From NCBI GenBank assembly GCA_045653245.1, contig JAZOLS010000029.1:2190-66189 (forward strand): 64,000 bases of DNA, in the 5' to 3' direction. Made by a program: the position numbers and the translations under genes. Positions within the stretch are counted from its first letter, which is position 1. Each line of letters starts with the position of its first letter. Source of the DNA: Faecousia sp. (GTDB lineage Bacteria > Bacillota > Clostridia > Oscillospirales > Oscillospiraceae). The notes under the pieces were generated by a model, which had not been told where the DNA came from, did no database searches, and saw only the letters and a program-made list of their open reading frames with translations. Shown here piece by piece: positions 23,052 to 26,289 of this stretch.

Positions 23052-24752
23052 TTAGCGATAGAAAGTATTTCCGCCGATGAATTCACGCACCAGGGATGTG
23101 GGTGGGATCTCGTCGTCCACATCCGCTTCCTGGACAAAGTTCAGCACCTTAACAATGGAACGAACCTCGTCATAGGCAGGATCTTCCGGCTCAACAGCCG
23201 TCAAAAGCGGGAAAATGTGTTTTTTCAGAACCGCCAGTTCGTACAAAGTGGAACTGTTGAAGATCACATCCGCGTTTTCCTGGAACGGGAAGATCCAGCG
23301 GCGCTCGCCAGCACGGACGCTGTCCCACATACCGATAGTTCTCTGTACACTGGTGCCACGGCCCTCAAAGTCGCGAACGATACGCCGCAGCAGGCGCAGA
23401 TAGCTGGTGGGGATACGGTTGTGGTCATCCAGATTCAGAGGCAGCAAGGGGCTCACATACATACGGAACACCAAATGTTTATCCAGGCCCCTGGGCAACA
23501 GTACAGGATTCAGCGCATGCAGACCCTCAATGACGAAAACAGTATCCTTATCCATCTTCATCTTATGGCCGTTCCAAACACGCTTACCCAATTTGAAGTT
23601 GAAAGTGGGGATCTCCACTTCCTCGCCCTCGAGCAATTTGGCCAAATGCTCACCGAAGAGATTAGTATCGATGGTATTGATGTGCTCCAAGTCAATCTTG
23701 CCGTCCGGGCCGGGCAAAATCATATCTCGGTCCAGGTAATAGTCGTCCAGGCTCATGAGGATGGGCTTTTTGCCGTGAACCCGGAGCTGGGTGGAAAGAC
23801 GGTTTGCAGAGGTGGTCTTGCCAGAAGAGCTGGGTCCTGCCAGCATGACTGCTTTTGCACCACGGTTGCAAACCATATCCGCAATACGGGAATAATTCTT
23901 TTCGTGCAGGGCTTCGTTGACCCGGATCAGTTCCCGAATGCGGCCTGAATCCACAAGGTCATTCAAATCCGCAACCGTCTGACAGTCCATGAGGTACCCC
24001 CACTTTTCCCCCTCGGAGAACATGGTAAAGAAATGGGGACTTTCTTTGTAATCGGCCACCTGGTCGGGATCTTGGTCATCGGGATAGATGAACATGAAGC
24101 CGCCGTCTTTTTGCTGAATATCCCAAACCTGCAGATAGCCGGTAGAGGGTGCTAGTTCGCCATAGAAATAGTCACCATAGTCTTCATGTATGTACTCGTC
24201 AAAATAGGGTTCTTTGCGCCAGGAAAGCAGTCTAGCCTTATCCTCCTGCCCGGATGCCACATAGCGGGCAATGGCTTCCTCGGTGGTCAGACGCTGACGG
24301 ATCAGTGGAATGTCCATTTCAACCAACTTTGTAATTTCTGCTTTCAGTGCGCGAACGGAGAATTCCTTGCATCCGTAAACCGCAATAAACAGGCCTGAGC
24401 CAACGGTACAATTCATCTTGGCGCGGGCCTGTGGATACAGCCGGTGCAGCGCAAGGAATGTAACGAATTGTGCGGTGCGAGTATAAACCTCTCTGCCTGT
24501 ATCGTCTCCATAGCGAAGCAGGCGCACCTGTCCGTTAGAAGCCGCCATAGCTCGGCGGATGGAGGGCCGATCAGAGTCCGCATCCTTTTGGCGGACGGGG
24601 ATGTAGTTCAGATTGAAAACTTCGCCTGCAATCTTTGCAGCCAAAGGTCGGGTGGAAAGTTTGTCTGTATCCATGCCCAATTTGCGTAACATATCCAAAA
24701 GAGATTGACCCGGACGAGGCTCAACAGTACGGCCGTCAATATTCAATGTCAT
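23052..24752 (-). CDS. Uridine-kinase-like nucleoside kinase with N-terminal TGS/ThrRS-like domains
   Basis: P-loop AGPSSSGKTT, LDDYY, IEGLHALN, RLLRRIVRD, WIFPFQENAD; N-terminal half resembles the ThrRS N-terminal region. Confidence 0.85.
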   Translation of the reverse strand: MTLNIDGRTVEPRPGQSLLDMLRKLGMDTDKLSTRPLAAKIAGEVFNLNYIPVRQKDADSDRPSIRRAMAASNGQVRLLRYGDDTGREVYTRTAQFVTFLALHRLYPQARAKMNCTVGSGLFIAVYGCKEFSVRALKAEITKLVEMDIPLIRQRLTTEEAIARYVASGQEDKARLLSWRKEPYFDEYIHEDYGDYFYGELAPSTGYLQVWDIQQKDGGFMFIYPDDQDPDQVADYKESPHFFTMFSEGEKWGYLMDCQTVADLNDLVDSGRIRELIRVNEALHEKNYSRIADMVCNRGAKAVMLAGPSSSGKTTSANRLSTQLRVHGKKPILMSLDDYYLDRDMILPGPDGKIDLEHINTIDTNLFGEHLAKLLEGEEVEIPTFNFKLGKRVWNGHKMKMDKDTVFVIEGLHALNPVLLPRGLDKHLVFRMYVSPLLPLNLDDHNRIPTSYLRLLRRIVRDFEGRGTSVQRTIGMWDSVRAGERRWIFPFQENADVIFNSSTLYELAVLKKHIFPLLTAVEPEDPAYDEVRSIVKVLNFVQEADVDDEIPPTSLVREFIGGNTFYR

Positions 24753-24756
24753 AGTC

Positions 24757-24990
24757 TTATCCTCCTTTATTTTCCTTGCGGTACAGTCTATAAAGCTGCA
24801 CCATCTGAATGATCAGAAGTCCGATGTTCAGCAAAGCAGTGGGCCATGTATTAGTAAAAATGCCGTAGATAGCGCAGATGATCGCACCACTCATATTTAC
24901 GGTCCGTAACCATTTTACCGAAGTCATCATCATGGAGATGAGAACCAAAGCCATACCTACATAGCCAAAGATTTCAAGATGTACATTCAT
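24757..24990 (-). CDS. 77-aa three-helix membrane protein (YgjV-like / SemiSWEET-sized)
   Basis: EIFGYVGMALVLISMMM / LRTVNMSGAIICAIYG / WPTALLNIGLLII; RBS AAAGGAG. Confidence 0.8.
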   Translation of the reverse strand: MNVHLEIFGYVGMALVLISMMMTSVKWLRTVNMSGAIICAIYGIFTNTWPTALLNIGLLIIQMVQLYRLYRKENKGG

Positions 24991-25032
24991 ACAGCATATG
25001 CTCCTTTCGGGGTTAAAATGCGGCGGTCAAGT

Positions 25033-25077
25033 AAAAAATATGGCTGACCGCCAGTTGAAGAACCGGTAGTCAACCAT
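25033..25077 (-). terminator. Riboswitch-controlled terminator overlapping the aptamer 3' half
   Basis: AUGGUUGACUACCGGUU-CUUC-AACUGGCGGUCAGCCAU, 16 of 17 pairs, then AUUUUUU. Confidence 0.8.
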
Positions 25078-25127
25078 TTACGGTGGTTCGTAGAAACGCT
25101 TACCCCTATTGTAAGCATATACCCAAT
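25061..25127 (-). ncRNA. Purine riboswitch aptamer, guanine-type discriminator (C74)
   Basis: GUA-UAU-GCUUAC-AAUAGGG-GUAAGC-GUUUCUAC-GAACCA-CCGUAAA-UGGUUG-ACUAC matches the purine riboswitch core (J2/3 GUUUCUAC, L3 CCGUAAA, L2 GG kissing). Confidence 0.92.
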
Positions 25128-25167
25128 ATGTAGCATTTCGCCAAAAGATTGGTTCAATGTGTTGTGG

Positions 25168-25196
25168 ATTATATCATACTTGCCCAAAAAATGCAA
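25168..25196 (-). promoter_or_regulatory. sigma-A promoter of the riboswitch operon
   Basis: TTGCAT-17-TATAAT with extended TG. Confidence 0.8.
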
Positions 25197-26200: not shown

Positions 26201-26289
26201 GGAGAGATGTCCGAGCGGTTTAAGGAGCTAGTCTTGAAAACTAGTGATGGGGCAACCCACCGTGGGTTCGAATCCCACTCTCTCCGCCA
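26201..26289 (+). tRNA. tRNA-Ser (anticodon UGA)
   Basis: GGAGAGA/TCTCTCC acceptor stem, anticodon arm CTAGT-CTTGAAA-ACTAG, long variable arm, GGTTCGAATCC, G73, encoded CCA. Confidence 0.97.

Follow-up and report, generated by a model that had tools for sequence, protein, structure and literature searches.

How would an RNA with a guanine-type purine aptamer control the genes behind it when the 3' half of the aptamer also forms one arm of an intrinsic terminator, and does an unusual aptamer core mean that it senses something other than guanine? These questions are raised by an interval on the minus strand of a 64,000-nucleotide stretch of DNA from Faecousia sp. (contig JAZOLS010000029.1, positions 2,190 to 66,189). 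We refer to this whole stretch as the window and number positions from its first letter. An earlier reading, made from the sequence alone, had proposed an ON switch, possibly with altered specificity. We followed it up with covariance-model searches, folding, and comparison to related loci.

A purine aptamer upstream of a two-gene unit

The sequence-only reading had placed a purine aptamer with C74 on the minus strand and had suggested an Infernal search with the Rfam model RF00167. That search bore it out. The model matched 25047-25144(-) with 47.7 bits (gathering cut-off 37), and this was its only match in the 78%-complete genome. The aptamer proper, with a guanine-I pocket, spans 25065-25123(-). 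We assigned it a P1 of 4 bp (25123-25120 with 25068-25065), a P2 of 6 bp (25116-25111 with 25103-25098), and a P3 of 5 bp (25088-25084 with 25076-25072). In the numbering of the xpt aptamer, U22 is at 25119, G54 at 25089, G72 at 25071, and C74 at 25069, with a U at position 24. G54 faces G72, leaving no Watson-Crick pair on top of P3.

Upstream of the switch, and outside it, is an rsmE-family methyltransferase gene (25939-25208(-); Pfam and NCBIfam). Downstream, on the same strand, is a two-gene unit whose small first ORF has a Shine-Dalgarno-like AAAGGAG at 25001-25007(-). Between rsmE and a glycogen-branching-enzyme-like gene, the window also contains a tRNA gene with a long variable arm at 26201-26286(+) (RF00005, 59.7 bits). 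From the sequence, we predict a sigma-A-type promoter at 25168-25196(-), consisting of a -35 element TTGCAT (25196-25191), a 17-nt spacer, and an extended -10 element TGnTATAAT (25176-25168). This promoter was not listed by a simple consensus scan; its -35 element matches at only 3 of 6 positions. The pattern TTG-N(19-21)-TAYAAT was found upstream of 27 of 51 related aptamers, compared to 0 of 51 on the reverse strand.

The terminator overlaps the aptamer

An intrinsic terminator hairpin at 25040-25077(-), supported by folding, conservation, and covariation, takes its 5' arm from the aptamer (the 3' strand of P3, J3/1, and the 3' strand of P1), as the sequence-only reading had described. The two arms (25077-25061 and 25056-25040) pair at 16 of 17 positions and are followed by AUUUUUU (25039-25033), with the U6 tract at 25033-25038(-). 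The hairpin takes up aptamer positions 67-78. Its folding energy is -22.1 kcal/mol (z -6.3), and none of 200 shuffled sequences was as stable; a simple terminator scan listed none at this site. The predicted toehold is the inner GGUU/AACU stem, which is not part of the aptamer. In stepwise folding, this inner stem appeared when the transcript end reached about 25050, after which the 3' arm captured P1 and P3. By the U-tract, the best secondary structure containing the aptamer was 13.3 kcal/mol less stable than the terminator state, in energies that cover secondary structure only and omit tertiary and ligand terms.

We compared the locus to two sets of relatives. A search of genomes with the kinase encoded downstream gave 581 relatives, of which the best 80 were kept; 34 of these had the aptamer upstream (30 found by pattern and 4 more by nhmmer). 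A pattern scan of metagenome DNA gave 32 loci, 27 of which were parsed. The pattern left the terminator and positions 24, 54, and 73 free and fixed C74 by construction. It was derived from kinase-linked examples and checked on the collected loci, and the sample is not unbiased.

In all 35 kinase-linked aptamers (window included; from the best 80 of 581 relatives), the first terminator after the aptamer paired C74 and at least four aptamer bases. The same overlap, with C74 paired, was present in all 27 parsed metagenome aptamers. Among other RF00167 aptamers of the family, an overlap including the C74-G pair was found in 1 of 17, in a control that was partial (30 loci of 47 matches; 17 aptamers parsed from 16 loci, with a terminator found for 14) and may include ON switches of another geometry. 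The terminator also tracks the aptamer where the aptamer varies. Across 57 distinct hairpins, position 71 and its terminator partner were U-A in 36, C-G in 8, and U-G in 5; position 73 and its partner were A-U in 39, U-A in 3, G-C in 3, and U-G in 3, with 6 unpaired; and the C74-G pair was present in all 57.

Conservation of the overlap in homologous leaders was one of the tests that the sequence-only reading had set for its ON wiring, and the overlap is conserved, with compensatory changes at positions 71 and 73. At this locus we did not find the separate terminator that goes with the OFF wiring of textbook guanine-I riboswitches. We found a terminator that is exclusive with P1 and the junction and has its nucleating stem outside the aptamer, the arrangement of a pbuE-type ON switch. 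Five RNA runs shared 5-6% of words; four of them consisted of contigs of diverged relatives with no molecule ends and bear on neither expression nor termination. Sequence and comparison together show the aptamer, the terminator that excludes it, the conservation of both as a unit, and the link to the genes. We consider it likely, on the same grounds, that binding of guanine (or hypoxanthine) blocks the terminator and turns on the membrane-protein/kinase-like operon.

Conservation of the switch and its gene context

The closest of the best 80 of 581 kinase relatives came from Oscillospiraceae MAGs, many labelled Faecousia. Among the same 80, no aptamer was found in 40 relatives with long flanks or in 6 with less than 500 nt of flank. 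That 40 of the 74 long-flank kinase loci have no aptamer counts against the ON-switch reading. In the metagenome set, the kinase or the small ORF was downstream in 29 of 32 loci, and homologues of the small ORF followed the aptamer in 20 of 32. All six P2 pairs varied on both strands among 33 aligned members, and none of 500 shuffles reached its covariation score; P1 and three P3 pairs were invariant across the same 33 sequences. These conservation counts were taken over kin and overstate independence.

On a FastTree phylogeny of 75 kinases (from the best 80 of 581), presence of the aptamer required 7 changes, compared to about 25 for shuffles; two of the rows scored as having none have truncated flanks. 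This patchy presence, along with the 4-bp P1, the open 54.72 position, the energy gap of 13 kcal/mol, and the modest Rfam score, could indicate that the aptamer is too weak to compete and that the element is a near-constitutive terminator or attenuator, or is decaying. We think this very unlikely: across loci whose proteins are 62-95% identical, the pocket bases and P1 do not vary and P2 covaries, and the terminator has been kept matched to the aptamer.

A stricter pattern, applied across the order, found no matches in 400 other genomes, 26 of them from the same family; locus L025 shows that this pattern can miss cases. The subfamily looks narrow, or the pattern is strict.

Several loci collected during this work differ from the window in ways that we note here. 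L025 (G038) and L129 have the compact ON platform before a different gene, whose product (~455 aa) carries GxGxxG in its N-terminal part and seems FAD-dependent oxidoreductase-like; L025 keeps C54-G72. In L121 and L136, the first gene after the switch is a short CxxC-containing ORF, presumably rubredoxin-like, and in L136 a YgjV-like ORF is next. L105 (839-960) and L107 (682-800) have a 19-nt hairpin inserted in L3 and keep the pocket and the terminator overlap. In other RF00167 aptamers of the family, namely L013, L015, L017, and L031, the stretch immediately before a U-tract can pair with the 5' strand of P3 and with L3 (positions ~55-69; -11.9 to -18.1 kcal/mol), and similar complementarity was seen by eye in L018, L023, and L024. 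These aptamers may represent another type of guanine ON switch, one with a long loop. Several of them are upstream of ORFs that we take to be guanine-deaminase-like or NCS2-permease-like, and L017, L018, and L023 have tandem aptamers. L013 also has, at 1517, a U74 (adenine-type) aptamer with similarly short P2 and P3, upstream of a secreted-looking 455-aa ORF.

Pairing downstream of the U-tract

The sequence-only reading had proposed that a downstream element, UGACCGCC (25022-25029(-)), acts as an antiterminator by pairing with the terminator 3' arm and looping out the U-tract. The pairing itself exists: folding gave a second hairpin between GGCGGUCA (25052-25045) and UGACCGCC (25029-25022) with an energy of -14.7 kcal/mol (z -4.6). 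A downstream duplex of -8 kcal/mol or better was found in 24 of 56 relatives, and it beat shuffles at p≤0.05 in 14 of 56, where about 3 would be expected. The proposed role is a different matter. Intrinsic termination is decided before RNA 3' of the U-tract is made. Because UGACCGCC is transcribed after this decision, and because about half of the relatives do without it, many of them having the ribosome site directly after the U-tract, we consider it almost certainly not an antiterminator. It can pair only in read-through transcripts, and since shuffles were beaten in 14 of 56 relatives, the hairpin may be a selected accessory fold of that RNA.

We also considered a translational second layer, in which the 5' strand of the aptamer pairs with the ribosome-site region, and rejected it: the pairing is strong in the window (-14.7; 0 of 200 shuffles) and reached p≤0.05 in only 5 of 56 relatives. 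In the window, it consists of about 10 bp between ~25122-25113 and ~25003-24994(-), the latter region lying between the Shine-Dalgarno sequence and the start codon. By eye, it is kept by wobble-compatible changes in L032 and L033. Accessibility of the Shine-Dalgarno sequence, as estimated by folding, showed no clear difference between the ON and OFF states.

The ligand pocket is that of a guanine-I riboswitch

The ligand-contacting bases are all those of guanine-I. U22, C74, and the J2/3 sequence U47-x-U49-C50-U51 were each present in 35 of 35 kinase-linked aptamers (window included; best 80 of 581). In these 35, position 48 was U in 32, C in 2, and G in 1, and position 73 was A in 29, U in 5, and G in 1. 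The one member with G48, a change reported as harmful, counts against the ON-switch reading. There were no insertions in J2/3 or J3/1, and junction lengths were those of canonical guanine-I. The aptamer thus has the features of guanine-I (U22, U47, U51, C74, and canonical junction lengths), and the altered specificity entertained by the sequence-only reading finds no counterpart in its ligand-contacting bases.

The marks of the other purine classes, as far as the sources describe them, were absent. Position 74 is C and not the U of adenine riboswitches. We did not find the one-base J2/3 and 3-4-base J3/1 insertions of guanine-II (PMC12445698), or the U51G change and junction insertions of xanthine-II (PMC9295807), U51 being present in 35 of 35 (best 80 of 581). 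The C51 of 2'-dG-I and 2'-dG-II (PMC12282948) is U51 here, and a local scan gave no matches to the 2'-dG Rfam family. The adenines at the two positions before U51 and the nucleoside-hydrolase gene of 2'-dG-III (PMC12282948, PMC9295807) are replaced by U49-C50 and a different gene. Finally, U47, which is lost from the 8-oxoG variant associated with an 8-oxoG deaminase gene (PMC10556655), is present.

The sequence-only reading had called the core non-canonical on four counts, of which two are ordinary. U24 is within the published guanine consensus, which has A or U at position 24 and a P1 of 2 to 9 bp (PMC2018637), and a P2 of the same 6 bp occurs in other family aptamers (L013, L015, L017, L025). 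The short P1 and the open 54.72 position are genuine subfamily traits. P1 has a median of 4 bp in the subfamily and 7 bp in other family aptamers. P3 is not closed by the Watson-Crick 54-72 pair that is usual for guanine-I, a pair not shown to define the class; the window has G.G, and the 35 kinase-linked aptamers (best 80 of 581) have A.G in 19, G.G in 9, U.G in 4, C-G in 2, and U.U in 1. The trait is subfamily-wide but not fixed in sequence: among 52 members, position 54 was A in 23, G in 20, U in 6, and C in 3.

Could the open 54.72 position and U24 reshape the top of the junction, within the same ON wiring, to accommodate a guanine nucleoside or another purine derivative, making this a new specificity class? 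C54-G72 was present in only 2 of the 35 kinase-linked aptamers (best 80 of 581) and in 13 of 16 other family aptamers. There is a precedent in 2'-dG-III, where binding depends on a U.A Hoogsteen tier made by the bases equivalent to 24 and 54 (PMC12282948); the U24/A54 combination occurs in 13 of 52 members. In addition, the regulated gene has a nucleoside-kinase fold, which is atypical for a guanine riboswitch. However, the published specificity variants, so far as the sources describe them, change bases or lengths in J2/3 or J3/1, and no such change is seen here. Positions 24 and 54 occurred in ten different combinations with no covariation, the near-identical leaders L143 and L033 differ at position 54 (U and G), and A54.G72 is also found in the unrelated family aptamer L017. 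We regard a new specificity as unlikely. Because each of the four bases occurs at position 54, with no link to the base at position 24, we read the open 54.72 position of this guanine-type aptamer as relaxed pairing or tuning, and not as a new determinant. Affinity may be weak, by analogy to xpt, since A24U abolished 2-aminopurine binding in that context; the natural yxjA aptamer tolerates U24 (PMC2018637).

The regulated genes

The first gene of the unit (24757-24990(-)) encodes a hydrophobic 77-aa protein similar to YgjV/Imp-like small membrane proteins. Its match to PF10688 was below the cut-off (E 4e-4; 20.7 bits, cut-off 23.5), and in the ESM Atlas it scored 0.91-0.92 to YgjV clusters. 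The small membrane ORF is longer (~160-220 aa), with an extra C-terminal region, in L059, L074, L081, L086, L089, L091, L094, L101, L105, L107, L114, L124, L127, and L138.

The second gene (23052-24752(-)) encodes a 566-aa fusion of a ThrRS N-terminal (editing-domain-like) region (residues ~73-216) and a uridine-kinase-fold P-loop domain (~302-517), as judged by PF00485 (E 1e-13), PDB sequence matches, an AlphaFold model (pLDDT 84.7), and Foldseek, which gave UCKs and ThrRS as top matches. Its relatives carry no label more specific than 'uridine kinase' or 'nucleoside kinase'. We mapped residues by alignment to the Thermus thermophilus UCK (ttCK), counting positions by hand: Asp40 (catalytic) corresponds to D336, Tyr88 to F384, Tyr93 to G389, and Arg152 to T467. 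The Walker A K312 and the catalytic D336 were invariant in 74 of 74 homologues (from the best 80 of 581), and the UCK fold was recognized by Foldseek. Uridine activity requires His or Gln at ttCK position 93, and the base is contacted by Arg152 (PMC5614712). We found neither residue in the fusion, which has G389 and T467; in the same 74 homologues, position 389 was Gly in 67 and never His, and position 467 was A, S, or T in all 74 and never Arg. These pocket changes were equally present in homologues with and without the riboswitch.

The regulated fusion is probably not a uridine kinase, as far as its sequence indicates. Another gene of the same genome encodes an ordinary uridine kinase (149 bits), in which the base-recognition Tyr, His, and Arg are kept. 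The genome also has an hpt gene and three nucleoside-phosphorylase-family genes. For de novo purine synthesis, no purF reached the cut-off in this 78%-complete genome (best match 153.6 against 350 bits). Because a guanine-ON switch is combined with an emptied pyrimidine pocket, a purine nucleoside is our leading guess for the substrate. The protein may instead salvage cytidine to balance pools, or act as a regulatory ATPase. In the literature, ttCK Y93G still phosphorylated cytidine, with a higher KM (PMC5614712), and TmUK of Thermotoga maritima made no UMP from uridine and had ATP phosphatase activity with uridine (PMC10248530).

More tentatively, and with less likelihood than otherwise, these elements may belong together. 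In that case an undescribed guanine-family ON subclass, with an invariant 4-bp GGUA/UACC P1, an open 54.72 position, and a compact self-overlapping terminator, would mark a purine-salvage module of gut Clostridia in which the ThrRS-N/uridine-kinase fusion phosphorylates purine nucleosides (guanosine/inosine) delivered by a three-helix YgjV-type carrier. Taken to its boldest, this proposal would have the RNA sense the nucleoside itself by means of the loosened junction.

Proposed mechanism

Transcription would start near 25161, and P2, P3, and the weak 4-bp P1 would fold first. The inner stem outside the aptamer would then nucleate the terminator. Without ligand, the 3' arm would invade P1, C74, and P3, and RNA polymerase would stop at the U6 tract; ligand would cap C74 and P1 for long enough to let polymerase pass. 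As for the short P1 and the missing 54.72 pair, tuning is the best interpretation: both would leave a ligand-free aptamer easily invaded, with G72 presumably fixed by its terminator partner while position 54 drifts. In RNA that has been read through, the downstream hairpin would be an accessory fold. We infer that control is kinetic, and pbuE-like, because the terminator fold is favored by about 13 kcal/mol, a gap that equilibrium binding could hardly repay. Toehold-mediated strand invasion under kinetic control has been described for pbuE (PMC7707468), and in the 8-oxoG variant the terminator excludes both P1 and P3 (PMC10556655).

Comparison to known systems

ON wiring on the purine scaffold has been published for adenine riboswitches and, whether predicted or assayed, for guanine-II, xanthine-II, 2'-dG-III, and 8-oxoG variants, so our surprise is moderate. 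We found no published description of this subfamily or of a link between a guanine riboswitch and a uridine kinase; subscription papers, Weinberg 2017, or the supplement of PMC9295807 could list it. Dozens of gut Clostridia share this arrangement, a hint that purines may be what the enzyme acts on. The riboswitch serves as a substrate clue for the ThrRS-N/uridine-kinase fusion and for YgjV-like small membrane proteins, and makes the purine-substrate hypothesis directly testable. More than 50 distinct natural sequences are available for studying kinetic strand-invasion switching, along with a compact guanine-ON part.

TmUK, a three-domain protein, has a ThrRS domain and an NK domain and is likened to the fusion by domain make-up, not sequence; the main text of PMC10248530 reports no assay with purine nucleosides, and its passages on this protein mention no riboswitch link. 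The guanine-II, xanthine-II, 2'-dG-III, and 8-oxoG variants share the Firmicutes purine scaffold and ON-type overlapping terminators (PMC9295807, PMC10556655), and guanine-II is predicted to follow the same logic, turning on salvage PRTases at high guanine. Their distinguishing changes (J2/3 +1 and J3/1 +3-4, U51G, an A-rich shortened J2/3, and loss of U47, respectively) are all absent here.

The aptamer shares with guanine-I (RF00167; B. subtilis xpt-pbuX and yxjA) the three-way junction, U22/U47/U51/C74, the J2/3 and J3/1 lengths, and the L2-L3 kissing bases, and with yxjA also U24 (PMC2018637). The guanine-I members characterised in the sources have their terminator apart from the aptamer and work as OFF switches (PMC2018637, PMC5393184), whereas here the 3' strand of the aptamer goes into the terminator, P1 has 4 bp, 54.72 is open, and the linked genes are different. 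As in the B. subtilis pbuE adenine ON switch, the terminator would invade P1 and the junction from a hairpin toehold (PMC7707468). It differs from pbuE in having C74 instead of U74, a much shorter nucleator with a 4-nt loop, and a membrane-protein/kinase-like pair in place of a purine efflux pump. In this subfamily, an adenine-type ON platform carries a canonical guanine pocket, and the combination is conserved in nature.
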